Of a stretch of 64,000 nucleotides of DNA, positions 1 to 40,895 are shown in pieces. The DNA comes from an archaeon (GTDB lineage: Archaea; Nanobdellota; Nanobdellia; SCGC-AAA011-G17; GW2011-AR17), in the NCBI GenBank assembly GCA_043814545.1, contig JBDRJY010000011.1:13013-77012 (forward strand). The letters run 5' to 3'. Within the stretch, counting starts at the first letter, position 1. Every line of letters starts with the position of its first letter. The position numbers and the translations under genes were made by a program. The notes below the pieces were generated by a model. That model was not told the origin of the DNA, ran no database searches, and was given only the letters and a program-made list of their open reading frames with translations.

Positions 1-614
1 AAGAAGGATTTACAATAATAACATTTGACCCGGACGGTCGAGGGAAAAGTGGAGGATTTGATGATCAAAATGGTTTCACTCATCAAGACGGATTAGCTGC
101 AATAATTGAATTTGTTGCAACTTTGCCAGAAGTCGATCCTAATCAAATGGGAATATTTTCACAATCATATGGTGTAACTTTAGCTTCAGGCGTCTTAGCA
201 AGATATCCGCAATTACCATTATCTTTCTTGATTGATTATGAAGGACCAGCTAATAGAGATGACACTGGTGGTTGTGATGAAGCAGGAACTGGACATTTAC
301 AAGATTTAGTAACTTGCGATGATGAAATGTTTTGGGCAGAGCATGAAGCTGAAACTTTTATTTCACAAATCCATGTACCTTATCAACGTTTACAAAAAAT
401 AAGAGACCATGCCCAACCAGATTATGAACATACAATTATAATGAACAATGCAGCTGTTGAAGGGTTAAGTCCGTGGGTAAGGTTAAACTATTTACAACTC
501 AACATAATTTATACTGAAGAAAATTTGCCACCAATGCTATCAAATATGTTCGGTGAAAAGTTGTTAGAGGAATTGCCTAATTTAGTAAATGAAATGTTAG
601 CATTGCCTTATTAA
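1..614 (+). CDS. alpha/beta hydrolase (CocE/DLH-like), 5'-truncated by the window edge
   Basis: Frame is open from base 3 (EGFTIITFDPDGRGKSGG...), then VDPNQMGIFSQSYG nucleophile elbow. Confidence 0.7.
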   Translation, partial: EGFTIITFDPDGRGKSGGFDDQNGFTHQDGLAAIIEFVATLPEVDPNQMGIFSQSYGVTLASGVLARYPQLPLSFLIDYEGPANRDDTGGCDEAGTGHLQDLVTCDDEMFWAEHEAETFISQIHVPYQRLQKIRDHAQPDYEHTIIMNNAAVEGLSPWVRLNYLQLNIIYTEENLPPMLSNMFGEKLLEELPNLVNEMLALPY

Positions 615-674
615 ACCAAAAGCAAAACCCGTTCTTCACAAATTTTAAAAACACTTTACCTAAAAACAATTAGC

Positions 675-1604
675 ATGAAACATTTAATCTGTCTCAAAGA
701 TATTTCAAAAGAAGAAATCTTACAACTTGTAAACAAAGCCGTAAACATTAAACGTAACCCTAGCGATTATTCTACCATCTTAAAAGATAAAACTTTGTTA
801 ATGATATTTGAAAAACCTTCTTTGAGAACAAGAGTAAGTTTCGAAACAGGTATGACACGGATGGGAGGACATGCTATCTATTATAATACTTCTACCTCAC
901 CAATGGGGAAGAAAGAGTCTATAGCAGATACAGTGAAAGCTGCTTCACGTTACGTCGATATTATTATGGCTAGATTGTTTTCGCATCGTAGCATGGAAGA
1001 GATGGCTCAACATTCAGATGTTCCTGTGATAAACGGTTTAACTGACTTTTCACACCCTTGCCAGATTCTTTCTGACTTACAAACTATCTTAGAGAAGAAA
1101 GGTAAGTTAGTAGGTTTGAAAATTGCTTATTTAGGAAATTCTAACAATAATGTAACACATTCTATCATGTACGGTTGTTTGAAAGTTGGTATGAATGTTT
1201 CAATTGGTTGTCCTTCTGGAACTGAGTACGAACCTTTGCCTTCAGTTGTTGAAGAATGTAAACGTATTTGTTTGGAGTCTGGTTCTACTTTAACTATTAC
1301 ACACAATGCAATGGAAGCTGTTCGCGATGCTGACGTGATTTATACTGATTCTTGGATGTCGTACCATATTCCTGAAAATCAGAAAGAAGAACGGTTAAGA
1401 ATATTTCAACCTTTCCAAGTGAATGCATATTTAATGTCTCATGCTAAATCTAATGCAATCTTTATGAATTGTTTGCCTGCAATGCGCGGTTATGAACAAA
1501 CAGCTGAAGTTATTGACGGTCCTCAAAGCGTTGTGTTTGACCAGGCTGAGAACAGGTTACATATGCAAAATGCTATCTTGTTGAAATTGTTAGGATTTTT
1601 TTGA
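675..1604 (+). CDS. argF: ornithine carbamoyltransferase
   Basis: FEKPSLRTRVSFE, HPCQ, DVIYTDSW, NCLP and FDQAENRLH motifs. Confidence 0.95.
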   Translation: MKHLICLKDISKEEILQLVNKAVNIKRNPSDYSTILKDKTLLMIFEKPSLRTRVSFETGMTRMGGHAIYYNTSTSPMGKKESIADTVKAASRYVDIIMARLFSHRSMEEMAQHSDVPVINGLTDFSHPCQILSDLQTILEKKGKLVGLKIAYLGNSNNNVTHSIMYGCLKVGMNVSIGCPSGTEYEPLPSVVEECKRICLESGSTLTITHNAMEAVRDADVIYTDSWMSYHIPENQKEERLRIFQPFQVNAYLMSHAKSNAIFMNCLPAMRGYEQTAEVIDGPQSVVFDQAENRLHMQNAILLKLLGFF

Positions 1605-1671
1605 TTTTTCCCTTCGGGTTAAAGGTTTGTTTCTTAGTTAATTGGCTGGTTGACAATTTATTGAAATATAT

Positions 1672-2088
1672 TTAAAACCAAGTTTCTTTTTTGTATGTCC
1701 TATATTCTTTTCCAAATCTCTTATCCAAAATTTTTTCTTCAAAATAAGCCCGAATAATAAGAATCATAATTAAACTACTAAAAATAATCATTATAATCCA
1801 ATTTTGAAATAATATCATCCATCCTATAAGTATTAGACTTAAACCAAAATATATTGGGTGGCGAATTTTTGAATATATCCCTTTCTTCATTAATTTTTTT
1901 GCTTTGGGCATTGCGGTAAAAGCGTTATGTAAAGTAAGTTTCCCTAACCACCAAATGATTATTCCAATAATTGATAACAAAAAACCTAAAATAAAAAAAG
2001 TATTTAGTGTGAATTTACTTGTAATAAAATACACTATAAGTATAGTAAATAAAAAAGGAATAATATTTTCAATTTGGTAACGTTTCAT
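1672..2088 (-). CDS. isoprenylcysteine carboxyl methyltransferase / PEMT family membrane protein
   Basis: TM helices, GIYSKIRHPIY and EEKILDKRFGKEY motifs. Confidence 0.85.
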   Translation of the reverse strand: MKRYQIENIIPFLFTILIVYFITSKFTLNTFFILGFLLSIIGIIIWWLGKLTLHNAFTAMPKAKKLMKKGIYSKIRHPIYFGLSLILIGWMILFQNWIIMIIFSSLIMILIIRAYFEEKILDKRFGKEYRTYKKETWF

Positions 2089-2324
2089 AATAAATTAAAA
2101 GGAGTAAACCTATTTAAATAATAGTAATTGTCCTTAAAAACAATCAATTTATTAAAGATTTTTCTTAATATTTTATATAATAATCAATAGACACAATCAT
2201 TTAAGCCAAAGGCAAAAACCAATCCAACCCCTTAAATTTATAAAGAATAAAGTCATTTAGTTTTATATATGAAATATTCCTTGAAAACCAACATTATGCA
2301 GCGGGTAGTGAAGGGGGTGATCTG

Positions 2325-2957
2325 GTGAGAACAATACTAATATTTTGTGCTCATAGTGATGACGAGGCTGTTGGGATGGCCGGCACCATTGCCAAGTTCG
2401 TTGATGAGAAGTATCAAGTTATCAAAGTAGTTTTATCTTTTGGTGAGTCTAGCCATCCGCATTTTCAGGAAGATGTTGTTATCAAAAAACGTGTTCAAGA
2501 AACTGAAGAAGCCAGCAAGTTTATCGGTATTAAGAAAACAATGTTTTTAGGTTTAAAAGATTTCAATGTTAAGCAAGAGTTGAAAGAAAAAAACGGGAAA
2601 GAAATCATTAAAAAGATTATTGAAAAGTATAAACCTCTACAGATTTATGTACCGACTGATTCTGACCCTCACCCTGACCATAAAGCTGTTAACAAAGTTG
2701 TCTTGGAAGCTGTTGACGTGTTACGGAAAAATTATCCTATTTACGCGTTTGAAGTTTGGAACCTTGTACAAGAAGGTCATCCTTTAGTTTACATTGACAT
2801 TACTAAGTATTATAAGAAAAAAATTAAATATATTAAAACTTTTGCAAGCCAATGGGTTTACATGTATTCCCTTATGATACCTGTTTATATTCGATCACGG
2901 ACGTATGGATGGGCACACAATTGTAAATATGCAGAGAGGTTTTACAAAATAAGATGA
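2325..2957 (+). CDS. PIG-L/LmbE family N-acetyl deacetylase
   Basis: AHSDDE and HPDH motifs; GTG start after a GGGGTGA RBS. Confidence 0.9.
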   Translation: MRTILIFCAHSDDEAVGMAGTIAKFVDEKYQVIKVVLSFGESSHPHFQEDVVIKKRVQETEEASKFIGIKKTMFLGLKDFNVKQELKEKNGKEIIKKIIEKYKPLQIYVPTDSDPHPDHKAVNKVVLEAVDVLRKNYPIYAFEVWNLVQEGHPLVYIDITKYYKKKIKYIKTFASQWVYMYSLMIPVYIRSRTYGWAHNCKYAERFYKIR

Positions 2958-4054
2958 AAGTATTGTTTGTTGTTTCAGGAATAGGGTACGGTGACGCTAC
3001 GCGTGAGCTTTCAGTAATACGTAAACTATTAGATAAACATCCTCAAACAAAAATCATGGTTGCCGGTTATGATAATTCTTACGAGTTTTTCAAAAATATG
3101 TTTGACACTATCAAAATTAAAGGTTATAAGCTACCAGGGAAACGAATGAAACTTTCTATTCTACCTTTCCTATTCCAAAATATTTTGTTACCTGTCCATT
3201 GGTTATTTAGTATGGTTAAAATTAAATCTAAGATTAAAAATTTTAAACCAGATATTATTATAAGCGACTTTGAACCGAGTGGCATTGCATTTGCCAGATT
3301 AGTTTTTAAAAAATGTATCGTTGTTTTCGGTTATGATCCTTTAACATATAAAGAATTTAAGAAAGAGAATAAAGTTAGTTTGAAATTGCGTACCGAAGCT
3401 TTATACTTTGAAAAAGTGTATAATCGTGCTAATTTAGTTATTATTCCTAAAATTTTTGGTAAAAATTCTCGCGATGTGAGTTTCCCTTATATTTACGTTG
3501 ATTCAGTGGTAAGGCAACGACCCGAAGAGCTTCCCGATAATAAAATTCTTATGAAAAAATATAAGTTTGAGAAACGGCCAATAATTGTAATGATGGGCGG
3601 TTCAAAGTTAGGTATACAGTTAGCTAAAAATATTAACAATGTTGCTGACAAATTTAACGAACATTTTATTATTTTCGGTGGCGAATGTAACTTTAAACTA
3701 AACAATAACATAACTTATATTCCGTTTTCTTTTGAATTTCTTGAATATCTGAAAATCTCTAAAGGAGTTATAACTTTGGGCGGACAGAAAACGATTAGCG
3801 AAAGTCTTCTGTTCAAAAAACCTTTAATGTTATTTCCTATTCGAGGACACGTTGAACAAGTAATGAATGCATACGAAGCTCGAGAATATTCATATTTAGC
3901 AAAAAGTTATTCAGCTAAAGAAATTGCTAAAGAAATTAAAGAGTTTTTGAAAGTTCAGCCTGCTTTAGAACATAAGCTTAAGAAATTAAAAATTGAAACT
4001 AACGGTGCTAAACAAATTGTTAAAGTTATTGAAACTTTAGCTAAGAAGTCTTAA
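2954..4054 (+). CDS. GT-B glycosyltransferase (MJ1255/GT28-like)
   Basis: GIGYGDATR, PDIIISDFEP, GG...ISE...KP...EQ..NA motifs. Confidence 0.85.
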   Translation: MKVLFVVSGIGYGDATRELSVIRKLLDKHPQTKIMVAGYDNSYEFFKNMFDTIKIKGYKLPGKRMKLSILPFLFQNILLPVHWLFSMVKIKSKIKNFKPDIIISDFEPSGIAFARLVFKKCIVVFGYDPLTYKEFKKENKVSLKLRTEALYFEKVYNRANLVIIPKIFGKNSRDVSFPYIYVDSVVRQRPEELPDNKILMKKYKFEKRPIIVMMGGSKLGIQLAKNINNVADKFNEHFIIFGGECNFKLNNNITYIPFSFEFLEYLKISKGVITLGGQKTISESLLFKKPLMLFPIRGHVEQVMNAYEAREYSYLAKSYSAKEIAKEIKEFLKVQPALEHKLKKLKIETNGAKQIVKVIETLAKKS

Positions 4055-6356: not shown

Positions 6357-6367
6357 TTTAAAATAAG

Positions 6368-6442
6368 CGGACCCGAAGGGATTTGAACCCTCGACCTACA
6401 GCTTAGGAGGCTGTCGCTCTATCCAAACTGAGCTACGAGTCC
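6368..6442 (-). tRNA. tRNA-Arg(CCT)
   Basis: Reverse complement GGACTCG...CGGGTCC-G cloverleaf; anticodon arm ACAGC-CTCCTAA-GCTGT; TTCAAAT T-loop; CCA not encoded. Confidence 0.95.
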
Positions 6443-6617
6443 AGCATAACAAAAGAGTAAATGCTTAAGTTTTTAAGATTTTTGGATTGAGTTCAAAGTC
6501 CAAAGCCAAGAATAATCTCCGTCGGTAAAATCATAAAGTTTAAATACCCTTAAAGCAATTAGAAATGTATGGGGGAATTACATTCTTCCAAAAACTCTAG
6601 AGGTGAAATGGAAAAAA

Positions 6618-7034: not shown

Positions 7035-7037
7035 ACT

Positions 7038-8843: not shown

Positions 8844-8906
8844 CGCAATTAATTATTATCTTTAGTTATATATTCTTTATGGAATTATAACAACTCTATA
8901 TTTAAA

Positions 8907-19102: not shown

Positions 19103-19768
19103 ATGCGAATTGGAAAAAAATTTGAATTTGGGTATCCCTGTATTGGACAAGGTCTTGGCTATAGATGGCCGGATGAAGAAATTGATTATAATTTAAAACT
19201 AAAAGAACAAAAAGAAGAATTGGGAAAATTTTTATTAGAAAAAACCAAAGAATATATTGAAACTTTTGAAATTTCTACTTATAGAGGATACCCTTATTTG
19301 CAATTTGGAGATGATGGTTTTGCAATTCATATTGGCGACGGTGGCCGTTGGGTAGACATAGGCAATCAAATGTTTAATGCTTTAGGAAGTTTTCATAATT
19401 TAGATTATTATGGAGAACATTTTGCTGGTTTTAATCTTGCATCAGACACACTTGAATATCTTGATGAAACAATTAAAGCGCCACGGATTTTAAAAAATGA
19501 TATTGTACAATATTCTTTACCAAATGGTTCACAAATTATTCCGCCAGAAATATTTCCAAAACAAGAAATTTTACAAAGATTTTTTGACATTGCACAATTA
19601 GGTACAATTGAAAACATACAATTAGACGAAGATCAACAAATCATAAATAAATCGCAAGGTATTATTTCTATAACTAATGGTGTTTGTGAAGGAAAAGAGT
19701 TTCATGGTTTCCATTTAAACAAAGCAACAAAAGTAATTGCGTATTTGTTAACTGCATTTAATGTTTGA
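19103..19768 (+). CDS. hypothetical protein
   Basis: 221-aa ORF with no recognised motif. Confidence 0.7.
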   Translation: MRIGKKFEFGYPCIGQGLGYRWPDEEIDYNLKLKEQKEELGKFLLEKTKEYIETFEISTYRGYPYLQFGDDGFAIHIGDGGRWVDIGNQMFNALGSFHNLDYYGEHFAGFNLASDTLEYLDETIKAPRILKNDIVQYSLPNGSQIIPPEIFPKQEILQRFFDIAQLGTIENIQLDEDQQIINKSQGIISITNGVCEGKEFHGFHLNKATKVIAYLLTAFNV

Positions 19769-19833
19769 ACCCTTAACCAGAAGGGAAAACTCCATAAAAC
19801 TTAAATATCTTAACAAAGAGTATTAATAATTCT

Positions 19834-20721
19834 ATGAAAGTTAAAAGAGGTTTACAACTTTTGTTAATGGGTTTTGCTTTAACTATTTCTGGTAATGCTC
19901 AAGAACAACCAATAGAAAAACCTGTAACAGCAACTAAAACTAAAGAGGATTTTAGAAATAAGTATAGATTTGAAGGTTATGAACCTACTACATTCTCAAC
20001 TGAGAAACAAGATTATGGTAATTGGAAAAATCTTGTAATAACACATCCTGAATCTGAACCTTACCTAGATTATATTGAACAGTCATGTAACAAATACCAA
20101 GACATTTATCCTGTCGATCCTATCTTAATTCTTAACCTTCTTGAACAAGAATCACATTTTGACCCTAACGCTGTATCTTACATGGGTGCTGCTGGTATTG
20201 CACAGTTTATGCCGTCCACTGCAAAATATGAATATGGTTTGAAAATTTATGAGCCTAAGTATTATAACGAATGGTTGAAAGCTTTCAGGATGAAACGTAA
20301 GTACAAAAATCTTGCCCAAAGTAGTTTAATGTTTGACGGTCCTAACGAAGAAGATATGAAAATTGATGATTGGGTTAACTATGTGCAAACGTATAAACAC
20401 GGACAGTACGTTGAACTTTATAACAAATATTCTGATCAAGAACGTGAGTTAAGAGATTTGTACAAAAATGATCTTTTAGAACATAAAGATGAAGATGAAA
20501 GATTCAACCCAGAAATTGAAATTGATGTTTGTGTATATTACATTGCCAAGTCAATGAAAACTCGAGATGGTGACATACGTGAAGCTTTATCGTCATACAA
20601 CGCTGGGATGCATAATGTTAAGATTTATGATGGTATTCCACCTTACAAAGAAACAGTTCTTTACCAAAATAGAATTTATAACGGATACAAAAGCGATAAA
20701 AAATTTTTAGAAAGAAAATAG
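19834..20721 (+). CDS. secreted lytic transglycosylase (SLT domain)
   Basis: Signal peptide; QESHFDPNAVS, GAAGIAQFMPSTA, ALSSYNAG and IPPYKET..Y motifs. Confidence 0.9.
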   Translation: MKVKRGLQLLLMGFALTISGNAQEQPIEKPVTATKTKEDFRNKYRFEGYEPTTFSTEKQDYGNWKNLVITHPESEPYLDYIEQSCNKYQDIYPVDPILILNLLEQESHFDPNAVSYMGAAGIAQFMPSTAKYEYGLKIYEPKYYNEWLKAFRMKRKYKNLAQSSLMFDGPNEEDMKIDDWVNYVQTYKHGQYVELYNKYSDQERELRDLYKNDLLEHKDEDERFNPEIEIDVCVYYIAKSMKTRDGDIREALSSYNAGMHNVKIYDGIPPYKETVLYQNRIYNGYKSDKKFLERK

Positions 20722-20740
20722 GTTTTTGCCTTCGGCTTAA
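20721..20740 (+). repeat. consensus copy of the dispersed ~20-bp hairpin repeat GGTTTTTGCCTTCGGCTTAA
   Basis: Other copies: 612-630(-), 1603-1622(+), 2201-2220(-), 19773-19792(-), 23250-23268(+), 23665-23683(-), 29874-29893(+), 38395-38414(+), 39554-39573(-). Confidence 0.8.
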
Positions 20741-20763: not shown

Positions 20764-21726
20764 TTAATCTGATCTTTCATATTGTACTTCGATTATTGAA
20801 CCGTAGTCAGGAACATGATCCTGTTCAAAAATAACTGCATTAGGACCTTCCTCATAATCCCATGTGTAAAATTCAGGATAACTGTCGACGTAAACATCTA
20901 TTGTACCTAAAACTGGATTATGGCTTAAGTAAAAAGTATCTTCCAAGCCTAACAACATGTTATCCAAATCATTTACCAAATCTAAAACCCAGTCCCATTG
21001 TTCAATGTTATACATTTTTCCGCCAGTATCGTTAGCTAACCACGGATAATCAGTGTCAAAGTTTCCTACAACATGAACGTATGCGTCAGTAGGATCTGCC
21101 TTAAGATCATTCTCGTACCAGTCAATAAAATCTCCTAAACTTATTTCTGAATTGTCTGGTTCGTCAGAAACAATTATTGTATGTAACTTTGAATTGTCCC
21201 TTAAGAAAAAATCATCGTCTTCAGTAACATTATAACCAGTTTCTTCTGTCAATGCTGCATAAATTGGTTGGCGACCCTTTTCGGTAGATGCACCGTTTGT
21301 TCCTAACCCAGCAACAGTTGTAAAGAATTTTAAAGCACCGTCAGGTGTTTCCGGTGTAATAACCTTAGGGTTACCTTGAAACCTTCCTGACTGAGTTGGA
21401 TCTTCCATATCAGTAGTTACTAAACCTAACCTATAATCAGCTCCAGAAGTGTCAAACCATCCAAGGAACTGTTGTAAATTGTAAGCTAATGCATTTTGGT
21501 CGTCAGACATGCTACATGAATTGTCTATAACCCAAAGAACATCAGTCGGTTGCTGATACTTGTCTTGTTCAAAAGTATCAGTTATTGTTTTACCATTAAC
21601 ATCTGTGTCAGTTGGCTGTGAAGTGTCTACTTCCTCAACTTTAGAAAGTTCATATTCAGTACAACCAGTAAAAGTAGCTGTGCCTAAAGCTAAGGCGCCT
21701 GCCAAGATTAGTCCTTTGAGATTCAT
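20764..21726 (-). CDS. VWA-domain lipoprotein
   Basis: Lipobox-like TFTG/C; DVLWVIDNSCSM MIDAS motif; IIVSDEPD. Confidence 0.85.
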   Translation of the reverse strand: MNLKGLILAGALALGTATFTGCTEYELSKVEEVDTSQPTDTDVNGKTITDTFEQDKYQQPTDVLWVIDNSCSMSDDQNALAYNLQQFLGWFDTSGADYRLGLVTTDMEDPTQSGRFQGNPKVITPETPDGALKFFTTVAGLGTNGASTEKGRQPIYAALTEETGYNVTEDDDFFLRDNSKLHTIIVSDEPDNSEISLGDFIDWYENDLKADPTDAYVHVVGNFDTDYPWLANDTGGKMYNIEQWDWVLDLVNDLDNMLLGLEDTFYLSHNPVLGTIDVYVDSYPEFYTWDYEEGPNAVIFEQDHVPDYGSIIEVQYERSD

Positions 21727-21840: not shown

Positions 21841-23247
21841 ATGAAAGAAAAACTCAAAAAGATTAATAATTTTGAATGGCGGTTGCCTAAGACTGTACGT
21901 GAAGGCATGAATGTTGACGCTAAGATTATTGCTTCTAAAAAAATGCTTGAAGCTATTGAAGATGAAGCCGTTGAACAGTTAACAAATGTTGCAATGTTGC
22001 CAGGCGTTGTTGAACCTGTTATAGGTTTGCCTGACATGCACTGGGGTTATGGTTTGCCAATGGGTGCAGTTAGTGCTTTCGATGCTGAGAAAGGTATTAT
22101 TTCTGCAGGCCTTTGTGGTTTTGACATTGGATGCGGAATTAATTTGATTCGTACCAACTTAACTGTTAAAGAAGTTGAAGATAAAATGGAAAAGTTAGTT
22201 TCTGAACTGTTTAACCATATTCCTTGTGGTGTTGGTAGTAAAGGTAAATTAAAATTGGATAAAGAAAAGTTGAATGAAGTTTTGGTTAAAGGTGTTGACT
22301 GGGCTATTGCTAACGGTTATGGTACTGAAGATGATAAAAATCATTTGGAAGAAAAAGGTCGTATGGAAGGTGCAGACCCAAGTAAAGTTTCTGACTTGGC
22401 TAAACGTCGAGGAATGCAACAGTTAGGTACACTTGGTGCAGGTAACCATTTCTTAGAAGTGCAAAAAGTTTCTGAAATTTTTGACAAGAAAACAGCTAAA
22501 GAATGGGGAATTAATAGTAAAGATCAAGTTTTAATAATGTTACATTGTGGTTCAAGAGGTTTTGGCCATCAAGTTGCTACAGACTACTTGAAAATTCAGG
22601 AAAAAGCTGTGCAAAAGTATAACATTAAAGTTCCTGACAGACAACTTGCTTGCGCCCCAGCAAATTCCCAAGAAGGTCAAGATTATTTTGCTGCAATGAA
22701 ATGTGCAATTAATTATTCATTTACTAACAGATTTGTTATGACGCATTGGATTAGAGAAACCTTTGAAAAAGTTTTTGAAAAAACGTGGGAAGAAATGGAT
22801 ATGAAAACTGTTTATGGTTTATGTCATAATGTGGTTAAGTTAGAAGAACATGAAGTTAACGGTAAAAAGAAAAAACTTTATGTTCATCGTAAAGGTGCTA
22901 CCAGAAGTTTTGATAAACAGCCTGTTTTAATTGCTGGGTCAATGGGAACTTCATCCTATTTATGCGTTGGTACCAAGGAAGCTATGAAAGTTTCTTTTGG
23001 AAGTTCTGCGCATGGTGCTGGCCGTTTAATGTCTCGTAATAAAGCTATCAAAGAGTTTAGTGGCAATGAGATTCAGAAACAGTTGAAAGAGCATGGTACA
23101 ATTGTGCAAGCTACTCACCCTCGTTCACTTGCTGAAGAAGCGCCTGATGCTTACAAAGATGTTGACGAAGTTATTGAAAGTGTTCATGGTGCAAAAGTGT
23201 CTTTGAAAGTTGTACAGATGCTTCCTATCGGTGTGATTAAGGGTTGA
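21841..23247 (+). CDS. rtcB: RNA ligase RtcB (tRNA splicing)
   Basis: PDMHWGYG, GFDIGCG, GTLGAGNHFLE, HCGSRG, HRKGAT, HGAGR and EEAP.AYK motifs. Confidence 0.97.
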   Translation: MKEKLKKINNFEWRLPKTVREGMNVDAKIIASKKMLEAIEDEAVEQLTNVAMLPGVVEPVIGLPDMHWGYGLPMGAVSAFDAEKGIISAGLCGFDIGCGINLIRTNLTVKEVEDKMEKLVSELFNHIPCGVGSKGKLKLDKEKLNEVLVKGVDWAIANGYGTEDDKNHLEEKGRMEGADPSKVSDLAKRRGMQQLGTLGAGNHFLEVQKVSEIFDKKTAKEWGINSKDQVLIMLHCGSRGFGHQVATDYLKIQEKAVQKYNIKVPDRQLACAPANSQEGQDYFAAMKCAINYSFTNRFVMTHWIRETFEKVFEKTWEEMDMKTVYGLCHNVVKLEEHEVNGKKKKLYVHRKGATRSFDKQPVLIAGSMGTSSYLCVGTKEAMKVSFGSSAHGAGRLMSRNKAIKEFSGNEIQKQLKEHGTIVQATHPRSLAEEAPDAYKDVDEVIESVHGAKVSLKVVQMLPIGVIKG

Positions 23248-23347
23248 TAGGGTTTTGCCTTCGGCTGAGAATTTTGTTAAATCCGAAAATATGTTGTAAA
23301 TTTTTGAATAGCTTTTTTAAATTTATATTAAAATTCAATTATTTATA

Positions 23348-23563
23348 TGTGAAAAATATTATATTGATACGGCAATTTGGTGAGATTTATATGCAAATCG
23401 AGTAGATAAATTTAGACCGCTTGGAGAATGGGCTTTCGAATTGTTTAAAATGATAAGAAAAGAAAAAAGTAAAATATTATATTCCAATTTAATAATTAAT
23501 GAGCTTTCTAAAGGTTTTGATGAAAAAGAAATCGTTAAAATTTTTGGATTAATTCCTAAATAA
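23348..23563 (+). pseudogene. degraded PIN-domain (VapC-like) gene fragment
   Basis: Reads EKYYIDTAIW*DLYANRVDKFRPLGEWAFELFKMIRKEKSKILYSNLIINEL...; in-frame TGA, no in-frame start, truncated. Confidence 0.7.
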
Positions 23564-23749
23564 TTCTTAAAAAAATTTCATTAAATCAAACAATTAACAT
23601 ACAATCCAAAACACGATAAAAATCTAACTAATATTTTACATAAAAATCAATAAACACAAACCTCTAAGGCAAAGCCAATAACCAAAATATCACCGAAATT
23701 AATATAAATAAAAGAGGAATAGGGACTATATAGAAAAGAGGGAATATAA

Positions 23750-28399: not shown

Positions 28400-28529
28400 T
28401 TCTTACAAATTCTGTGTTTTGCACAGGTAGTTTTCCATAAACTATATAAATAGACGGTTTGTGAAAAACATTCAACCTATACGACTATTTCCCTATAGGA
28501 AAACTATGTATATGGGGGTACCTAAAAAA

Positions 28530-29837
28530 ATGAATAAAACACTAAAAGCACTTGGTATCATTATGCTTTTGCTGGTAAGTATGCTTGGAGTTACAAGCTT
28601 AGCTGCAGCTGATGCAAATGATGTTAAAGTGTTAAACGTTGAAATTAACGGTGTTGATATGCCTTCTACTGTTTCAGTAGAACTTGGCGAAACTATCGAC
28701 ATTGAAGTTGAACTTTGGAGTGAAGTCAACAATGCAGAAGACCTAAAAATTGAAGCTTGGGTTGGCGGTTACGAATACGATGATATTGAAGATACCACAG
28801 GTATGTTTGATGTTAAATCTGGCGTAACTTACACAAAAGACCTAAGTTTAAATATACCATCTGACATGGATGTAGAAAATAAAAACGAGTACACTTTGAA
28901 TCTTAGAATTTTTGACGGTGATTCAGTTGAATCATACGAATATGTTCTATTTATTGAAAGAGCTCGTCATACTTTGAACTTGTTAGACGTTGAATTTGAT
29001 TCAAATGTTAACGCTGGTGATGAGCTAGCAGTTGATGTAAGAGTTGAAAACTTCGGTGAAAACAAGGAAGAAGATATCCGTGTTGAAGCTGAATTAGTTG
29101 GCGTAGATTCTGATAGAGTTTACATTGACGAACTTGCAGCTTTCGAAGAAGATGGAGACGATGAACCAGAAAGTTCTGACTCAGCTAGTCTAACCTTAAA
29201 TGTTGGCGACGATGTTGTTTCAGGTGAATACGAGTTATTGGTTACTCTTACTTATAACAGAGGCCACGACAGTATGACTGAATCATACACCGTAACTGTT
29301 GACGGCGCAGAAGCTGCTGTTGCAGACAACGATGCTGTAACTGAAGTTACCGAAGGCACAATCATTGCGGTTGACTCAACCTCATTGAGCTTAGTTGCTG
29401 GTGAAGAAAACAGTTTGAAAGTATTGATTGCTAACCTAGGTTCAGAAAACGCTATGTACACTGTAGCTGTTTCCGGTACGCAACTATGGGCTGACTCTAC
29501 AGTTAGTTCAAGCTTTGTATCAGTTCCTGCTGGTCAAGTTGGGGAAGCTTATGTTTACCTAACTGCTAAAGACGATGCAGAAGCTGGCGACCATGTATTC
29601 ACTTTGCAAATTAGCGAAGGCAATGATTTGGTTGGCGAAGCAAGTTTGACTGCTACCGTAAGCGATGCTAACAATGCACTAAACGTTCTTGATAACGTTG
29701 GTTCAGCTTGGAAGTTAGCTTTCGTAGGTTTGATTGTTTTAATTATTGTTGTTGGTTTATTCCTAGCATTTAGGAAAATGAACAACGATGATGAAGACTA
29801 TCCTTTAGAACCTAAAGACGGTCAGACCTATTACTAA
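28530..29837 (+). CDS. acidic surface / putative S-layer protein with Ig-like domains and C-terminal TM anchor
   Basis: Signal peptide from ATG 28530 (GGGGGT RBS); beta-rich repeats (VRVENFGENKEEDI); C-terminal TM followed by a ...GQTYY tail. Confidence 0.75.
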   Translation: MNKTLKALGIIMLLLVSMLGVTSLAAADANDVKVLNVEINGVDMPSTVSVELGETIDIEVELWSEVNNAEDLKIEAWVGGYEYDDIEDTTGMFDVKSGVTYTKDLSLNIPSDMDVENKNEYTLNLRIFDGDSVESYEYVLFIERARHTLNLLDVEFDSNVNAGDELAVDVRVENFGENKEEDIRVEAELVGVDSDRVYIDELAAFEEDGDDEPESSDSASLTLNVGDDVVSGEYELLVTLTYNRGHDSMTESYTVTVDGAEAAVADNDAVTEVTEGTIIAVDSTSLSLVAGEENSLKVLIANLGSENAMYTVAVSGTQLWADSTVSSSFVSVPAGQVGEAYVYLTAKDDAEAGDHVFTLQISEGNDLVGEASLTATVSDANNALNVLDNVGSAWKLAFVGLIVLIIVVGLFLAFRKMNNDDEDYPLEPKDGQTYY

Positions 29838-29873: not shown

Positions 29874-30014
29874 GATTTTAGCCTTTGGCTATATGCATTA
29901 AATATTCTGTTTATTAAAAATATAGTCTTAATTCATTTAAACCATACCTCCTTCAACCATAATTCTTATATATAACAAAATCCATTCTCTTATGTATAAA
30001 AAGGAGGTTAACCT

Positions 30015-31361: not shown

Positions 31362-31412
31362 TTTTTTATTTTTTTCTATAACTTTAAATATTAAGAACGC
31401 TTCTAATAACTT

Positions 31413-33163: not shown

Positions 33164-33201
33164 GGTATTATTTAATTTATTTAATTTTATTAATGTTTGG
33201 G

Positions 33202-33894: not shown

Positions 33895-33933
33895 AATCTT
33901 TCTATAAAACTGATATTTATATAATCTTGGATT

Positions 33934-34653: not shown

Positions 34654-34736
34654 ACCTAAAAGGATAAATCTAATCTTTATATAATTTTTCTAAAAACAAA
34701 AAGTTTAAAGCCATAAAAGTCCTTATATATACGCTA

Positions 34737-36464
34737 ATGACAAATATCGAACTTGCTTCATTATTCTATGAAATGGCCGAGATTTATCAAATTAAAGGTG
34801 TAGATTGGAAACCGCAAGCTTACATCCGTGCTGCGCAAAATATTGAAGCTTTACCTAAAGATGTTCAAGACATTTATGAAAAAGGCGGAAAAAAAGCTTT
34901 GAAAGAAATACCTGGCGTAGGTGGTGGTATTGCTAAAAAAATTATTGAATATATTAACAAAGGGAAGATAAACGAACTTGAACGGTTAAAAAAATCTATT
35001 CCTAAATCAATGACACAAATGTTGTCCGTCCCAGGAGTAGGTCCTAAAACTGTTAAAATTCTTTCAAAAAAACTTAAGATACGTACAATTGATCAATTAA
35101 TGAACGCCGCAAAAAAACAAATGATTCGTCGTTTAGAAGGTTTCGACGAGAAAACTGAAAAAAATATTATTAAAAGTATTGAACTGATTAAAAATAAAAA
35201 AGAACGGCAATTATTAGGTTTAATTTTTCCTTTAGCACATAACATTGAACGTGAACTGAGAAAACAATGGTTCGTTGAAAAAGTTGAAATTGGAGGATCT
35301 ATCCGACGGGGAAAAGAAACTGTCAAAGATATAGATATCCTTGTCGTGTCAAAGTATCCAAAAAAAGTTATGGATTATTTTAGCCAGCTCAAAACAATTG
35401 CAAAAATTAATGCTCAAGGTGATACTAAATGTAGCGCTATCCTTTCCAACTTAATACAAATTGATTTGCGTGTCGTGAAAAAAGAAAGTTTCGGCGCAGC
35501 CTTACAATATTTTACAGGTAATAAACAGCATAATATTCAGTTAAGAGAAATTGCTATCCAGAAAAGATACAAATTAAACGAATACGGATTGTTTACCAAG
35601 AAAGATAACAAGTTAGTTGCAGGAGCTAAAGAAAAAGATGTTTATAATAAATTAGGTTTGAAATATATTCCCCCTGAGCTAAGACATGGGACAGGTGAGA
35701 TTGAATTTGCAAGAAAAGGTAAGTTGCCTAACCTAATAAAAGAAACAGATATTAAAGGAGATTTACACGTACATTCTACTTATAGCGACGGCGAAAATAC
35801 TGTTTTTGAAATGGCACAAGCTGCTAAAGATCTAAATTATCAATATATTTGTATCACTGACCATTCTCCAATGTTAAAAGTGTTTGGTGGTATGGAAGAA
35901 GATGATGTTTCTAAAAAAGTTAAAGAAGTTAAACGTATTGATAAAAAATTGCGTGGAATAAAAGTTCTTTGTGGAACAGAAGTAGACATTAAATCAGATG
36001 GTTCTTTAGATTATGATGAAAAAACTTTGAAAAAGTTTGACATTGTTGTTGCGTCAGTGCATAGAGGGTTTAATTATTCTAAACAGAAAAATACTAAACG
36101 TTTAATTAAAGTTTTAGAAAATAAACATGTTCATATATTAGGGCATCCCCAAGGAAGAATTCTTGGTAAACGAACAGGTATCGAAGTTGACTGGGACCAG
36201 ATTTTTGAAGTTGCTAAACAAAAAAATAAGGTTATGGAAATTAACGGACAACCTAAACGGTTAGATTTGAACGCAACTCTTACCAAACTAGCTATCGAGA
36301 AAGGCGTTAAGCTTTGCATAAATACTGATTCGCATACTGCTTACGGTCTTAAAGCAATGAGGCTAGGTGTATTACAAGCTCGTCGAGGATGGGCAGAAAA
36401 AAAAGATATAATTAATACTAAATCATGGAAAGAACTTTCTACTTCCCTGAAATTATCTCGATAA
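34737..36464 (+). CDS. polX: DNA polymerase X with PHP domain
   Basis: HhH motifs, GSIRRGKETVKDIDIL, YFTG.K.HN, DLHVHS..SDG, TDHS and NTDSH. Confidence 0.95.
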   Translation: MTNIELASLFYEMAEIYQIKGVDWKPQAYIRAAQNIEALPKDVQDIYEKGGKKALKEIPGVGGGIAKKIIEYINKGKINELERLKKSIPKSMTQMLSVPGVGPKTVKILSKKLKIRTIDQLMNAAKKQMIRRLEGFDEKTEKNIIKSIELIKNKKERQLLGLIFPLAHNIERELRKQWFVEKVEIGGSIRRGKETVKDIDILVVSKYPKKVMDYFSQLKTIAKINAQGDTKCSAILSNLIQIDLRVVKKESFGAALQYFTGNKQHNIQLREIAIQKRYKLNEYGLFTKKDNKLVAGAKEKDVYNKLGLKYIPPELRHGTGEIEFARKGKLPNLIKETDIKGDLHVHSTYSDGENTVFEMAQAAKDLNYQYICITDHSPMLKVFGGMEEDDVSKKVKEVKRIDKKLRGIKVLCGTEVDIKSDGSLDYDEKTLKKFDIVVASVHRGFNYSKQKNTKRLIKVLENKHVHILGHPQGRILGKRTGIEVDWDQIFEVAKQKNKVMEINGQPKRLDLNATLTKLAIEKGVKLCINTDSHTAYGLKAMRLGVLQARRGWAEKKDIINTKSWKELSTSLKLSR

Positions 36465-37629
36465 CGTCTCTATTGTTTAACTTATGGTCTTTACCAACAG
36501 TTCTTTTTGTTTTAACAACAATAGCACGAATAAATTTGTTTCCTAAGTCAGAATGTATTTTGTAAGCAAAGTCTAATGCAGTTGAACCATTTTTTAAAAG
36601 GAAACAATCAGGTAAACATCGACCGTCTTTGTCAACCAAGTTGTTTACACCGCCAGGGAAAATTGCAATCTGATCTAAAAGTTCGAAAACTCCTTTGTCC
36701 AATACTTGTTGTACACCTGTTGAACCAAACTTTTCTAAAATATTTTTTTTGATAAATTCTAAACCTTGCTTTTGTTGATTGTTCAAATTTCCTTTAATTT
36801 CAAAATCGTTTTCACCAGGAATATATTTTATTAAATCTTTTTTAGCTGCTTCCCTCAATGCCAATTCCGACTCAGCTGAACAAGGTACAATTATATAATC
36901 AGAAAATTCTTTTTGTAATCTTTCAAAATTATTTTCAGCACCTGGAACGTCTATCTTGTTAGCAGCAATTATCATTGGTTTAGTTATCTTTCTTAACTCG
37001 CATGCAAGATTTATTAAATCTTCATCGGTCCATTTCATAGATATTGAAGCCAAGTTTAATTTTTTAATAGAATTTTTTACCATCTCTTCAGTAACTTTTA
37101 ATGCTGAAAGTTGTTTTGCCAAGGATTTATTAATATCTAATTTTTCTTGCATAACTTGCCTAGCAAACTTTTCCCAGCCTTTCTTAAGAATTTGGAAGTA
37201 CCACATGTCTAACTCAACTTCTAAAAATTTTATGTCTTCAGCAGGATCGTAAGAACCAGCTTCAACTTCTTCACCTTGAGCATTTGTTGAACCTGAAACA
37301 TCTATAACATGTATCAAAGCGTCAGCTTGCCTTAGATCTTCCAAAAAAGCATTACCTCTTCCCAATCCAGTATGCGCCCCTGGCACTAAACCTGCAACAT
37401 CTAACAATTCTATTGGCACAAATCGTTTATGGTTAATACAAAAACCGGTCCTAGGATTGCATTGTTTGTCAAAGTCTTTATCAACACAGTCTATTTTTAC
37501 AAAGCCAAAACCCCGGTTAGGTTTAATAGTAGTAAACGGATAATTAGCTATCTCTACATCTGCTAAAGTAGCAGCTTTAAAGAATGTTGACTTGCCTACA
37601 CTCGGTTTACCGACCACTCCGATTAACAT
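36439..37629 (-). CDS. ychF: archaeal YchF/Obg-family GTPase with TGS domain
   Basis: GKPSVGKST, ANYPFTT, DVAGLVPGA, NKID and C-terminal TGS motifs. Confidence 0.92.
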   Translation of the reverse strand: MLIGVVGKPSVGKSTFFKAATLADVEIANYPFTTIKPNRGFGFVKIDCVDKDFDKQCNPRTGFCINHKRFVPIELLDVAGLVPGAHTGLGRGNAFLEDLRQADALIHVIDVSGSTNAQGEEVEAGSYDPAEDIKFLEVELDMWYFQILKKGWEKFARQVMQEKLDINKSLAKQLSALKVTEEMVKNSIKKLNLASISMKWTDEDLINLACELRKITKPMIIAANKIDVPGAENNFERLQKEFSDYIIVPCSAESELALREAAKKDLIKYIPGENDFEIKGNLNNQQKQGLEFIKKNILEKFGSTGVQQVLDKGVFELLDQIAIFPGGVNNLVDKDGRCLPDCFLLKNGSTALDFAYKIHSDLGNKFIRAIVVKTKRTVGKDHKLNNRDVIEIISGK

Positions 37630-37709
37630 GAGTTTAATTTAAATGCAAAGATTTTAAAAACCTTTTGGAAACCTTTAAATATCAGGATTATTCAATTTTA
37701 ACTGTTTAA

Positions 37710-37811
37710 GGGTCCCTTGCTCAGTTTGGTTTAGAGCACTGGTCTTATAAGACGCTTTTGGCGATAGTCTAAGTTAGCCAGAGGTCGCGGGTTCGAATCC
37801 CGCGGGACCCA
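37710..37811 (+). tRNA. tRNA-Ile(TAT) with a 26-nt intron at 37/38 (37750-37775)
   Basis: GGGTCCC/GGGACCC acceptor stem, anticodon TAT at 37746-37748, BHB motif (CTTA/TAAG helix, TAA and TTA bulges, GAC/GTC outer helix). Confidence 0.92.
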
Positions 37812-37823
37812 CCTTTTATCAAA

Positions 37824-38387
37824 ATGAAACGAATATTCCTTATTCATGGATGGGATGGTAATCCTAAAAATTGTTGGTTTCCTTGGCTAAAACAAAAATT
37901 AGAAGAAAAAGGTTTTCAAGTTATAGTTCCTAAGATGCCTAATGCTGAAGAACCTAAAATAAATGTTTGGGTACCTTTTCTTACAGAATTAGTTAAAGAA
38001 GTTGATGAAGAAACTTATTTTGTTGGACATAGTATTGGTTGCCAAACTATAATGAGATTCTTAGAAACTCAAACTAATAAAATTGGAGGAATTATTTTTG
38101 TTGCAGGTTTTTTTAATTTACCCTACTTAGAAACTGAAGAAGAAAAAATAATTGCTAAAGAATGGATTGAAACTCCTATTGATACAGAAAAGATTAAATC
38201 TCTTACTCAAAATATAATTGCTATTTTTTCAGATAACGACGAAGATGTTCCCTTAAGTGATTCTAAACTTTTTAGAGAAAGGTTAAATGCTAAAATAATT
38301 ATTGAAAAAGAAAAAGGACATTTTGATGACTCTGCTAATATTAAAGAATTGCCTGTTGTGTTTAATGAATTATTAAAGATGAGTTAA
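37824..38387 (+). CDS. RBBP9/YdeN family serine hydrolase
   Basis: IHGW, WFPWL, GHSIG, SDND..VP and GHF motifs. Confidence 0.9.
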   Translation: MKRIFLIHGWDGNPKNCWFPWLKQKLEEKGFQVIVPKMPNAEEPKINVWVPFLTELVKEVDEETYFVGHSIGCQTIMRFLETQTNKIGGIIFVAGFFNLPYLETEEEKIIAKEWIETPIDTEKIKSLTQNIIAIFSDNDEDVPLSDSKLFRERLNAKIIIEKEKGHFDDSANIKELPVVFNELLKMS

Positions 38388-38421
38388 AGATTTGGGTCTT
38401 TGCCTTCGGCTGAATACAAAG

Positions 38422-39258
38422 TTATTGTAACTTCTTTCTCTTTTTGTTCTCTAACCTTTTCTTCTTTTCAGGTTCAGTCAAATAATTTTCTTCAGAAACA
38501 ACTTTTTCTCCTGTTTCTATTTCTAAATTTTTTCTTGCATCACCAGCAATCTTCCCGCCCTTTTTCGCTGCATCTTGGTTTTCATTAAAACCTTGAGAAT
38601 CTTTGGATTTTGTAATTTCAGTTGTTGCTTTTTCACCGAGCATCGAAAATATTAACTCTAAATCATCCATATGATCCCGAAGATTTTCTCGTTTTAAACC
38701 TTTAACTTCTTTATATTCACTAGGAGTTAAATCAAAAGTAGCTTTTGAAATTTCTGCAGTAAGTATGGAAAACTCTTTTTGTTCTTTAATCCCTCTTTTT
38801 TCCCATTCATCAGTTAATTCGTCCCTGATTACTATGCCTCTTACGCGTTTTTCAATCCATTCATCAGAGTAACCTTTGACTCTGTAAATTTCTTTCATGC
38901 GTTTTTGCGCTAATTCTGGATTTTCAATCTCTTGTACTCTTTCATAGCCGACTTTAGCTAGCCATAGCTTGAATGGTTCAGCTTTCTTTGAAGGTATTGA
39001 TTGTATAATCCTAAATATGGATTTTGTGTTGGCACAGTCTGTAAACCTGAATTTACCATCTCTAGCTTGCAATTTCAAACCGTGACAAATTGTCACGAGT
39101 TGAGGTTCCCTTTGTTTAAGCTTCCTCCAATATGCTAATTCATCTTGACTATTTGTAAGTACTGCAATAATATCTGAAACAGAAAAATACCATTCGCTAT
39201 TATGCCAAACTCTTCTAATTTTCTTATCTTGAAATACTACTAGCTTATTTTCTTCCAT
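38422..39258 (-). CDS. BRO-N domain DNA-binding protein
   Basis: IRRVW....WYFSV.D, RIIQSIPSKKAEPFKLWLA and ENLRDHM motifs. Confidence 0.88.
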   Translation of the reverse strand: MEENKLVVFQDKKIRRVWHNSEWYFSVSDIIAVLTNSQDELAYWRKLKQREPQLVTICHGLKLQARDGKFRFTDCANTKSIFRIIQSIPSKKAEPFKLWLAKVGYERVQEIENPELAQKRMKEIYRVKGYSDEWIEKRVRGIVIRDELTDEWEKRGIKEQKEFSILTAEISKATFDLTPSEYKEVKGLKRENLRDHMDDLELIFSMLGEKATTEITKSKDSQGFNENQDAAKKGGKIAGDARKNLEIETGEKVVSEENYLTEPEKKKRLENKKRKKLQ

Positions 39259-39405
39259 ATGAAAAAGTAAATGTTAATAAGTTTATAAGCTTCACGCGTG
39301 TTTATCATGTCAAGTGGTTTTGTAAAATATAGTTTAGATAAATTTTGGACTTTCGCTGCGCGTGAATACAAGAAAGTGTCTCAGCCAATTAAGCTTGACT
39401 ATTCC

Positions 39406-39495
39406 AACAAACCGACCGTTATTGTTATTAAGATTGTTGTTGCCGTTCGCGTTGGCGTTGTTATTAAGATTATTGACACACCACAACCGCCCAAC
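39406..39495 (-). other. diversity-generating retroelement template repeat (TR)-like sequence, orphan in this window
   Basis: 30 codons: 14 AAC/AAT and 16 with no adenine (VGRLWCVNNLNNNANANGNNNLNNNNGRFV); hairpins on both sides. Confidence 0.8.
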
Positions 39496-39572
39496 AGTAG
39501 CTATTTCACTTCCTGGAAAGAGTTTAGAAATAGTATCAAAACAAAACAATAGTCTAAGCCGAAGGCAAAAAC

Positions 39573-40895
39573 CTATTTTCCAATATCACTTAACTTCTTA
39601 GAACTAATACGTGGTTTCAAACGTTTCCATAAAAAGTAAAATGTTATTATCAAAACTATCAGTAATATTATTCCAATAATTCTATTACGAGTAACATTCT
39701 CTTCATCTTCACTATCTTCTTCGCCAGTATCTAATTCAGAGTAATTGAAAGGTAATTCTAACGTTGTTTCTTCAGCATCAGTGGATTCAGTTACCTCAAA
39801 ATATAATGTAATTGAATCGGAAGGGCCTTCGTCTGACATCACACTTAAAGTGCCAAAATATAATTCAGCATCAGCATCAAAATTATCATTTACAATTAAG
39901 TCAAATTCACGTAACTCGTTAGAATCTAAAACTCCTATTGTCATCGGTGAAACTGTTAACACTTCTGCCAAATTACCGCCAAAAACAACCTGAACATTAG
40001 TCAAGCTATAATTATATTCGTTGTAAATAGGGACAGTTGCCGTCAACCGTTGTTTTTGTGTCAAAGTTGTTTCCAAAGAATCTTCGTCTATCATCAGTTT
40101 TAGTTCAAATTCAATAGCGGGTATAGATGGTTCTTCCATAGGACATTCTTCTTCAGGAAATTCTAAACAATCCCATTGATTCTCAGAACAAACGCAACGT
40201 TCAACCTCTGTACCGTCGTCACATTCGTACATTAAACTTTCATTTACAACACAGATTATTTCTTCTTCAGGTTCTTCAGGTATAGAAAAGAAAAAAGGGA
40301 CATAATACGTGTTGTTAACCATAGACAAAGTTAAAAACTTTTTTTCAGTTATACCCTCCTCAATATTAACAGTTAATTTACGCAAAGAAGAAGGTTCAAT
40401 TGTTAAACTTGTTCTTACAGGATTTAAACCGTCATCAGATGTGATAAAAATATCCGACGTTTCGTCGCCCCAGTTGAAAACAGTTAAATCTACTTTATCC
40501 AAATCTTCAATAAAAAATCCGCCAGGTTTTAATGTTAAATATTCAATCGTAGTATTATGATAAGTTAAACTAAACTCAATAGATTCGTTTTCCTCCTCGC
40601 CATCTTTCAAACCAGATACAAAAACTGAATATGATCCGGACGCAAGGTGGTTAGGTATATTAAAATATACAAAATAACTTTCTTCAGGCAAAGTTAAAAG
40701 AATTTTTCCAATTTCCACTTCCACGCCCTGCCAATTATACATAATAATATCAGAAACATCTACAGATTCATATTCAGTTATCTCTAACTGGAAAGTTTCG
40801 CCAACATAATAATCAGTCTTATAATGTTCTAAGTCAGCAAAAACCAGTGGAACTAAAAGTAAAATAAAAAATAAAAGGGTAAACAGTTTCATCAA
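39573..40895 (-). CDS. acidic secreted, membrane-anchored surface protein
   Basis: Signal peptide, Ig-like segments, Cys-rich insert, C-terminal TM with basic tail. Confidence 0.75.
   Translation of the reverse strand: MMKLFTLLFFILLLVPLVFADLEHYKTDYYVGETFQLEITEYESVDVSDIIMYNWQGVEVEIGKILLTLPEESYFVYFNIPNHLASGSYSVFVSGLKDGEEENESIEFSLTYHNTTIEYLTLKPGGFFIEDLDKVDLTVFNWGDETSDIFITSDDGLNPVRTSLTIEPSSLRKLTVNIEEGITEKKFLTLSMVNNTYYVPFFFSIPEEPEEEIICVVNESLMYECDDGTEVERCVCSENQWDCLEFPEEECPMEEPSIPAIEFELKLMIDEDSLETTLTQKQRLTATVPIYNEYNYSLTNVQVVFGGNLAEVLTVSPMTIGVLDSNELREFDLIVNDNFDADAELYFGTLSVMSDEGPSDSITLYFEVTESTDAEETTLELPFNYSELDTGEEDSEDEENVTRNRIIGIILLIVLIITFYFLWKRLKPRISSKKLSDIGK

Follow-up and report, generated by a model that had tools for sequence, protein, structure and literature searches.

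A 20-nt hairpin repeat recurs between the genes of the 64,000-nt stretch of archaeal DNA analysed here (hereafter the window; C11:13013-77012 of genome G000), and it belongs to a dispersed family of ~90-125 copies genome-wide. The repeat has the consensus GGTTTTT-GCC-TTY-GGC-TKAA, in which a 3-bp G+C stem and a T-rich triloop are enclosed by fixed asymmetric flanks (GGTTTTT before, TKAA after); the core measures 20 nt, and ~30 nt in one subfamily. An initial annotation of the window had described a repeat of this kind, likened it to the repetitive extragenic palindromic (REP) elements and proposed that its copies bracket captured accessory genes. The analysis presented here bears out the repeat and its likeness to REP elements but not the gene capture. 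With a probability of roughly one half, we favor the view that these sequences are a lineage-specific, REP-like family of mini-hairpin repeats, orphaned of a transposase, that fills or marks the boundaries of transcription units.

The genome comprises 1,029,313 bases in 25 contigs (33% G+C, 98.7% complete). Genes were called crudely as the longest non-overlapping open reading frames (ORFs) of at least 70 aa, which yielded 1111 ORFs covering 91.5% of the sequence. Copies of the repeat were located using a position-weight profile built from 53 seed copies, combined with a pairing score for the three stem positions, and a first-order Markov copy of the genome served as the control. Relatives used for comparison were 30 or 60 genomes of the same family or order (0.5-1.7 Mb). 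For one of them, G003, 926 kb were compared by tblastn with all 1111 crude ORFs of G000.

A dispersed, lineage-restricted hairpin repeat

The 20-mer GGTTTTTGCCTTYGGCTTAA matches the window seven times at up to three mismatches, whereas dinucleotide-preserving shuffles average 0.02 matches and none of 100 reaches seven; the combined profile and pairing scan recovers 11 copies, all between positions 611 and 39573. Across the genome the same 20-mer has 53 matches at this tolerance. A genome-wide motif scan, which had been suggested as a check on the original observation, gives 93 copies at a threshold of at least 18 bits as compared with none in the Markov control, and 125 as compared with 6 at a threshold of at least 14 bits. 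Copies are found on all large contigs, and no 12-mer or 14-mer of the genome is more over-represented than the core of the motif. Public sequencing runs that contain the window sequence are labelled groundwater. Contigs from independent public groundwater runs, identical to the window, span the copies at 20721 (run X3) and 23250 (run X1), and these two copies are therefore not assembly artefacts.

The family is restricted to this lineage. At up to two mismatches the motif has 38 matches in G000, whereas 28 of the 30 relatives have none and two have one each, one of these single matches being a coincidence within coding sequence that is present in G000 too. Similarly, a degenerate 14-mer matches G000 52 times and each of 60 relatives between zero and four times. 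Exact matches elsewhere are single and scattered (15 stretches in a genome collection of 185,579 species and 13 stretches in metagenome contigs), and viral contigs contain no exact match. Relatives G001 and G003, inspected over 200 kb each, show no comparable repeat of their own, and neither the motif nor its surroundings match any Rfam family.

Two variant stems in the window, CCC-TTC-GGG at 1603 and GGC-TTT-GCC at 23664(-), had been taken to indicate that structure is kept over exact sequence, and genome-wide counts agree with that proposal. When intergenic matches to YTTT-NNN-TWY-NNN-T with an all-G+C 5' arm were collected, the 3' arm was perfectly complementary in 51 of 72. Detection by flanks and loop alone returned three Watson-Crick pairs in 70 of 225 sites, as against 3 of 119 in the control. 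The 93 copies include the stems GCC/GGC (51), CCC/GGG (13), GGC/GCC (8) and CGC/GCG (4), and the remainder have rarer paired types or a single mispair. Loop and stem variants are moreover linked, as a TAC loop occurs in none of the 51 GCC/GGC copies but in 8 of the 25 copies with the three main alternative stems (Fisher p = 6e-5). A flipped stem distinguishes the two paralogous 190-nt segments at C1:20998 and C20:1964 (GCC-TTC-GGC in one, GGC-TCC-GCC in the other). Because loop and stem variants are linked in subfamilies, the family would seem to have multiplied by copying from a few master variants rather than by independent evolution site by site. Mispairs give no indication of the folding strand, as G-T and A-C mispairs, which were sought as such a sign, are equal in number (56 and 56), and single folds reveal no larger conserved RNA structure around the motif.

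Placement relative to genes and transcription signals

The window had been interpreted in a bacterial frame, but its DNA is archaeal. A gene for a two-repeat TATA-binding protein (TBP) lies at C7:65120-65632, and among the control genomes the same search matches only the four archaeal ones; ARAGORN reports no tmRNA. TATA-like hexamers peak 30 nt ahead of start codons (107 of 593 genes at -30, over a background of ~10-20), which is the signature of leaderless archaeal promoters. Sense-strand runs of five or more T (T5+) cluster past stop codons, with 107 starts in the first 5 nt and ~35 by 30-40 nt while A-runs remain flat, and T-runs directly behind stops fit archaeal oligo-T termination. In the window, canonical bacterial terminator-like sites occur about as often as expected (11 as against 9.6, and 9 as against 10.1). 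As the genome is archaeal, the logic of sigma-70 promoters and Rho-independent terminators does not apply to it; sigma-70 (-35/-10) promoter readings were dropped after the TBP gene and the -30 TATA peak were found, and other readings of the window that assume either signal need revision. In addition, Rfam identifies a 102-nt tRNA match at 37710-37811 (+) of the window (55.7 bits) that ARAGORN in bacterial mode does not report; judging from its length, this tRNA probably contains an intron, which would fit the RtcB ligase gene at 21841-23247. A protein search with RtcB returned mixed taxa, and the label DPANN-like used below is based on genome size, the habitat label and the archaeal markers.

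The ~8.5% of the genome that lies outside the crude ORFs holds 85 of the 125 copies scoring at least 14 bits and 68 of the 93 scoring at least 18 bits. Per kb of intergenic DNA, the density is 1.0 in convergent, 0.59 in tandem and 0.31 in divergent gaps. Of 1116 gene junctions, 47 carry the motif, 13 of these being convergent and 9 divergent; counted by copy, 14 of 59 intergenic copies stand in convergent gaps and 12 in divergent gaps. Orientation shows no corresponding bias. The four classes of upstream and downstream gene orientation relative to the motif hold 16, 14, 14 and 12 of the 59 copies, and within 60 nt of gene 3' ends there are 28 sense and 30 antisense copies. The orientation of the motif is likewise not significantly related to local GC skew (p = 0.21) or gene-strand bias (p = 0.31), and contig C7 is alone in having all of its copies (7 of 7) on one strand.

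Placement along the gap, on the other hand, is narrowly constrained at both ends. As the initial annotation had observed in the window, several copies begin at or overlap stop codons. Genome-wide, the distance to the stop is -5 to +2 in 16 of the 28 sense copies and -9 to +7 in 14 of the 30 antisense copies. In tandem gaps, 29 of 30 copies are closer to the 3' end of the preceding gene (as counted from our table of copies), and in six tandem gaps of 330-1336 nt the copy still lies -1 to 17 nt from the stop. Sense copies frequently incorporate the stop codon (TAG-G, T-GA), and their T5 run falls 0-5 nt past the stop, exactly where the T5+ runs of the genome peak. In antisense copies the convergent gene takes its TAA from the TTAA/TTAG tail, or else the copy stands after the T-tract of that gene; here the motif itself offers only an A-run, and a T5 run is found within 60 nt at 13 of the 30 gene ends concerned. 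Toward the next gene, the distance to the start codon is at least 35 nt in 26 of 27 cases, which, given the -30 peak, corresponds to the outer edge of the TFB-recognition element (BRE) and TATA box. The one clearly readable junction that is conserved in the relative G003 illustrates this arrangement: in G003, stop, T-tract, TATA box, 24 nt and ATG follow one another with no motif, whereas in G000 the motif stands between the T-tract and the TATA box. Copies would thus appear to persist only in slots free of other signals, from the stop and oligo-T terminator to the BRE/TATA of the next gene. Readings of the unit as a K-turn or box C/D, boxA-like or dif-like element were dropped by eye, as the defining positions do not fit.

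Window copies, longer forms and neighbouring repeats

The 11 copies of the window are collected in the table below. Pfam confirms the identities that had been given to the PEMT, ornithine transcarbamoylase (argF), SLT and Bro-N genes beside them.

Table. Copies of the hairpin repeat in the window, with scan scores and genomic sites (coordinates are positions in the window).
Position	Strand	Form of the unit	Score	Site
611-630	-	Degenerate, stem GCT/GGT, one mispair	15.3 bits, 3 mismatches	Between upstream ORF stop at 614 and argF promoter
1603-1622	+	Compensated stem CCC-TTC-GGG	33.4 bits	First bases overlap TGA stop of argF (675-1604)
2201-2220	-	Consensus, GCC-TTT-GGC	31.6 bits, 0 mismatches	Divergent region between PEMT gene (1672-2088, -) and PIG-L gene (2325-2957, +)
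19773-19792	-	Decayed, CCC-TTC-TGG, one mispair	22.1 bits	Antisense, 4 nt behind stop of ORF 19103-19768
20721-20740	+	Consensus	35.1 bits, 0 mismatches	First G is last base of TAG stop of SLT-domain gene (19834-20721)
23250-23269	+		32.9 bits	2 nt past TGA stop of RtcB (21841-23247); followed by ~480 nt without long ORF
23664-23683	-	Flipped stem GGC-TTT-GCC	27.0 bits	Opens ~125-nt longer repeat found at five genome places
29874-29893	+	Stem extended to 5 pairs (TAGCC-TTT-GGCTA)	23.2 bits	36 nt past stop of ORF 28461-29837
38395-38414	+	GGTCTTT variant, TACAAAG extension	35.0 bits	Convergent gap
39347-39366	+	Variant stem CGC-TGC-GCG, TACAAG extension	26.2 bits	Within doubtful 84-aa ORF 39298-39552
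39554-39573	-		31.2 bits, 1 mismatch	First G is last base of TAG stop of ORF 39573-40895 (-)

Approximately 16 copies in the genome carry the extension TACAAAGTT. In the window it follows the copy at 20721-20740 together with an A-run, which can be read as the T-tract of the convergent gene at 20764-21726. The copy at 38395-38414 lies 7 nt past a serine-hydrolase gene (37824-38387) and 7 nt ahead of the stop of the Bro-N gene (38422-39258, -). Weak outer pairing (YTTTG with CAAAG) is confined to the TACAAAG-extension subfamily. Longer similarity also occurs: the window copies at 2201-2220(-) and 23664(-) are alike over a further ~57-99 nt, and five copies share ~125 nt past the motif (C14:70294, C15:1012, C14:64171, C6:58198 and window 23683-). 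No conserved RNA structure emerged for this 125-nt extension, whose alignment folds at -1.24 kcal/mol and contains no compensated pair; it has no Rfam match either, and its distal part occurs without the motif too.

A second dispersed repeat, of ~60-100 nt and ending in TTAGATTGTGTTTTAATTGTTTGATTTGTGGACA, was also observed, fused to the motif at some sites and alone at others. It accompanies the motif at C14:70314-70419, C15:915-1000, C14:64191-64285, C6:58259-58318 and window 23555-23625(-), and stands without it at C14:91664-91712, C14:73190-73252, C15:8744-8820 and C7:8742-8812. No conserved RNA structure and no Rfam match were found for this repeat, which may be an upstream regulatory module.

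Two other features attributed to the window were not confirmed. The supposed PIN pseudogene at 23270-23660 contains no long ORF, and the one translated frame is full of stops. A template repeat of a diversity-generating retroelement had been placed beside the Bro-N gene; the ORF at 39298-39552 belongs to no Pfam family, no pair of template and variable repeats was found within window positions 36000-46000, and the only match is one of 50 nt and 82% identity between 39422-39471 and C11:79304-79353, near the single reverse transcriptase of the genome. This match may be the template/variable pair that was meant.

That reverse transcriptase lies beside a multi-copy family of ORFs of ~250 aa that match no Pfam family and whose copies are 88-94% identical in DNA. 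The ORF family and the reverse transcriptase occupy C11:78445-79065(-), just past the end of the window, C11:79561-80605, C9:98-880 and 2828-3616, a place on C19, and the ends of C12 and C15. Each gene of the ~250-aa family is followed by a hairpin, TTTTTTCGYG-ACGCGC-TTC-GCGCGT-TAAAT (seven listings at six distinct places), and together the reverse transcriptase and the ORF family resemble a multi-target diversity-generating retroelement. The hairpin behind these presumptive targets has the same layout as the dispersed motif, that is, a T-run, a G+C stem, a TTC loop and TAA, with a stem of 6 bp. It differs in that the long form occurs only beside the ~250-aa family, whereas no variable or template repeat adjoins the dispersed motif. 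The window also encodes, at 34737-36464 (+), a family X DNA polymerase with a pol-beta-like core, helix-hairpin-helix and PHP domains.

Origin and role of the repeat

Some bacteria are well known for dispersed REP-type repeats. REP and REPIN elements (PMC3733652) share with our family a short (20-40 nt) hairpin with a G+C stem, high copy number and species specificity, a conserved tag that flanks the palindrome asymmetrically, compensated stems that define subfamilies, occasional head-to-head doublets, and a position behind genes, mostly in unidirectional and convergent gaps; an indifference to orientation is common to both. REPs have ~8-12 pairs and bacterial hosts, whereas the present motif has three pairs and a triloop in an archaeal host. 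Further differences are that its consensus lacks a GTAG or CGTC tag, that no RAYT was found, and that its copies are mostly single, with many overlapping a stop codon. The REP class does include a CGTC-tagged superfamily without a known transposase (PMC3733652). We therefore use the term REP-like rather than REP, as the tag and the RAYT are missing and the host domain and stem length differ. At the level of abstracts, a literature search returned no description of such repeats in the candidate phyla radiation (CPR), DPANN or other archaea, nor of so small a hairpin.

Other known systems resemble the family less closely. Integron attC sites are likewise folded-strand sites that lie just past, or overlap, the stops of small accessory genes, and in an island on C6 the copies separate toxin-antitoxin and GNAT genes. 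However, attC sites measure 57-141 nt, whereas the motif is 20-30 nt long, has no R/L box pairs, is of mixed orientation and is scattered across every large contig. The genome has five tyrosine recombinase genes, but none adjoins an array of copies, and one of these recombinases (275 aa by its ORF call) is shorter than integron integrases usually are. Nor is there, with G003 as the one yardstick, the genome-wide association with accessory genes that integron cassettes would imply. Archaeal oligo-T terminators are matched insofar as the sense motif places its T5 run just behind the stop, but half of the copies at 3' ends are antisense, with an A-run only, and copies stand in divergent gaps too; archaeal terminators are not known to include a conserved hairpin or a 3' tag. 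A bacterial intrinsic terminator was rejected on account of the archaeal host, the weak hairpin and the order of the parts, as the T-run precedes the hairpin and an A-run follows it on the other strand. Finally, comparison with miniature inverted-repeat transposable elements revealed no related autonomous insertion sequence with copies, the IS607-like and TnpB loci carrying none.

The proposal of a REP-like gene-capture system, in which copies would act as ends or attachment sites and accessory genes would be inserted where two of them form an inverted pair, is not supported and appears to us the least probable of the explanations considered. The three pairs that had been described in the window do face inward as described, but inward pairs are not in excess genome-wide: the 30 neighbouring pairs that are no more than 3 kb apart comprise 11 inward, 8 outward and 11 tandem, near the random expectation of ~7.5, 7.5 and 15. 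Genes adjacent to the motif, which had been expected to be lineage-specific, are as conserved as others, with homologues in G003 for 55 of 111 as compared with 494 of 1000 (Fisher p = 1.0), and no difference emerges in three length classes either; 5 of the 11 genes with a copy on both sides have such a homologue. Among junctions of at least 25 nt, the motif occurs at 4 of 71 that are syntenic, 9 of 82 whose genes are both conserved but non-adjacent, 34 of 281 with one conserved gene and 16 of 189 with neither. The somewhat higher frequency where a conserved gene meets a non-conserved one would suit gene capture, but the difference is not significant (p = 0.21) and amounts to a weak trend at most. 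One local case in its favor is the island at C6:107597-115256, where 10 copies of mixed orientation, enriched in TAC-loop variants, lie within 8 kb among small genes of typical cassette content (ParE-like, MazE/AbrB-like, a GNAT acetyltransferase, an HNH endonuclease, DUF7768 and a double-helix-turn-helix AsnC-type regulator). It also contains two head-to-head doublets, 1-2 nt apart, that are reminiscent of REP pairs. This island may represent a local burst or imported DNA. Genome-wide, most copies are single, and there is no integron-like array of uniform orientation and no Y1 transposase to serve such a system.

A search for candidate enzymes recovered an IS607-like pair that fills contig C13 (2261 bases) and encodes a serine recombinase and a TnpB/Cas12f-like protein of 418 aa, a TnpB-like remnant with an internal TAA stop at C21:17734-18659, and a further serine recombinase (resolvase) gene at the end of C18, in addition to the five tyrosine recombinases, one rve integrase and the one reverse transcriptase. 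The tyrosine recombinase gene at C4:9522-10349 merely has a copy after it. Small contigs were considered as master elements and ruled out, as they are not copies of one another.

Several of these results weigh against a REP-like family. A RAYT or TnpA(Y1) gene flanked by the motif had been anticipated, yet a search for the Y1/HUH transposase domain (PF01797) had no match in the 98.7% complete genome, although it was positive in 6 of 14 control genomes. No copy lies at the ends of the transposase, recombinase or reverse-transcriptase loci, the IS607-like and TnpB loci included. Presence/absence polymorphism at copies was not seen in four public runs, which have the same sequence at low depth; no terminal inverted repeats were recognised beyond the 3-bp stem, and inspection of the listed flanks, without a formal test, disclosed no target duplications. 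All described REPs have much longer stems, and the hairpin is marginal: RNA and DNA folds range from -1.2 to -6.9 kcal/mol, and 10 of 14 did not improve on shuffles (z above -1). Crude ORF calls also make some distances, and some assignments of copies to the inside of an ORF, uncertain. Lastly, copies hug the stop despite hundreds of free bases beyond it, which favors function or target preference; passive tolerance is a poor explanation because this holds even in long gaps. With respect to folding, nearest-neighbour models may undervalue DNA mini-hairpins with a GAA triloop.

The chief rival is a development of the terminator or protein-binding site that the initial annotation had kept in reserve. 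Here the unit would be a host cis-element at transcription-unit ends, whose hairpin and flanks are read by a lineage-specific DNA- or RNA-binding protein and which would stop or insulate transcription in both orientations, as a roadblock terminator or insulator. We consider this less probable than a REP-like family but well ahead of the other alternatives. It would explain why copies abut stop codons even in long gaps, are threefold denser in convergent than in divergent gaps and halt at the edge of the next promoter, why the sense T5 run falls at the oligo-T terminator position of the genome, and why pairing is kept via compensatory changes. Yet only 47 of 1116 junctions bear the motif, 9 of those 47 are divergent with nothing there to terminate, and antisense copies provide no T-tract, with a T5 run at fewer than half of such ends. 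The absence of the motif from 60 relatives means that it cannot be a general mechanism of the group, and linked loop and stem subfamilies look like descent by copying. This role is nonetheless compatible with a REP-like origin, and the two are not exclusive because bacterial REPs have themselves acquired host roles.

Two further explanations seem to us highly improbable. One holds that the motif is a tag for self-recognition, read on the double strand in the manner of a DNA uptake sequence, and that it built up through biased uptake and recombination instead of transposition; an asymmetric ~20-30 bp motif that is strongly over-represented, limited to this lineage and without orientation preference would be consistent with this, and uptake sequences of Neisseria also sit behind genes. 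Known uptake sequences, however, occur at ~1 per kb, coding DNA included, which is about ten times denser than the motif (~0.1 per kb), whereas the motif is nearly excluded from coding DNA (85 of 125 copies are intergenic), and compensatory stem changes and linked subfamilies would be unexpected for a tag read on the double strand. The other, to which we give equally little credence, is a promoter element, that is, an upstream activating site, a BRE-like element or a transcript start. TATA-like hexamers are indeed enriched about twofold at -18 to -9 of the motif (21 as compared with 10 expected), with a peak also at +43 to +46, and on its opposite strand the motif finishes with A-rich sequence that presumably resembles a BRE. 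These boxes, though, are the neighbouring genes' own promoters, at the normal -30 from their starts. Moreover, 14 of 59 copies stand in convergent gaps, 16 abut stops with coding DNA upstream, and only half have a same-direction gene downstream.

A REP-like repeat family accordingly remains our preferred interpretation. Because orientation relative to neighbouring genes is random, a protein other than a Y1/HUH transposase would most likely recognise the unit as DNA, whether as a small cruciform or as a folded single strand. The unit may also bring the host some benefit, perhaps as a boundary element. A bolder version, which we consider unlikely but less so than an uptake tag or a promoter element, is that the unit is the substrate of a non-HUH enzyme of small (DPANN-like) archaea that recognises a 3-bp mini-hairpin and its fixed flanks on folded single-stranded DNA and copies it to sites immediately past stops, or else a new protein-read boundary signal that acts in both orientations.

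Around 100 copies of a 20-nt unit represent a notable investment for a 1-Mb genome that is more than 90% coding. Mobility of the unit would imply that some enzyme other than RAYT copies it, and a non-HUH enzyme of the kind just described would, if real, define a new class of miniature mobile element. If instead the unit is functional, it would provide a sequence-specific, orientation-independent boundary signal for archaeal transcription, whose termination remains poorly understood.

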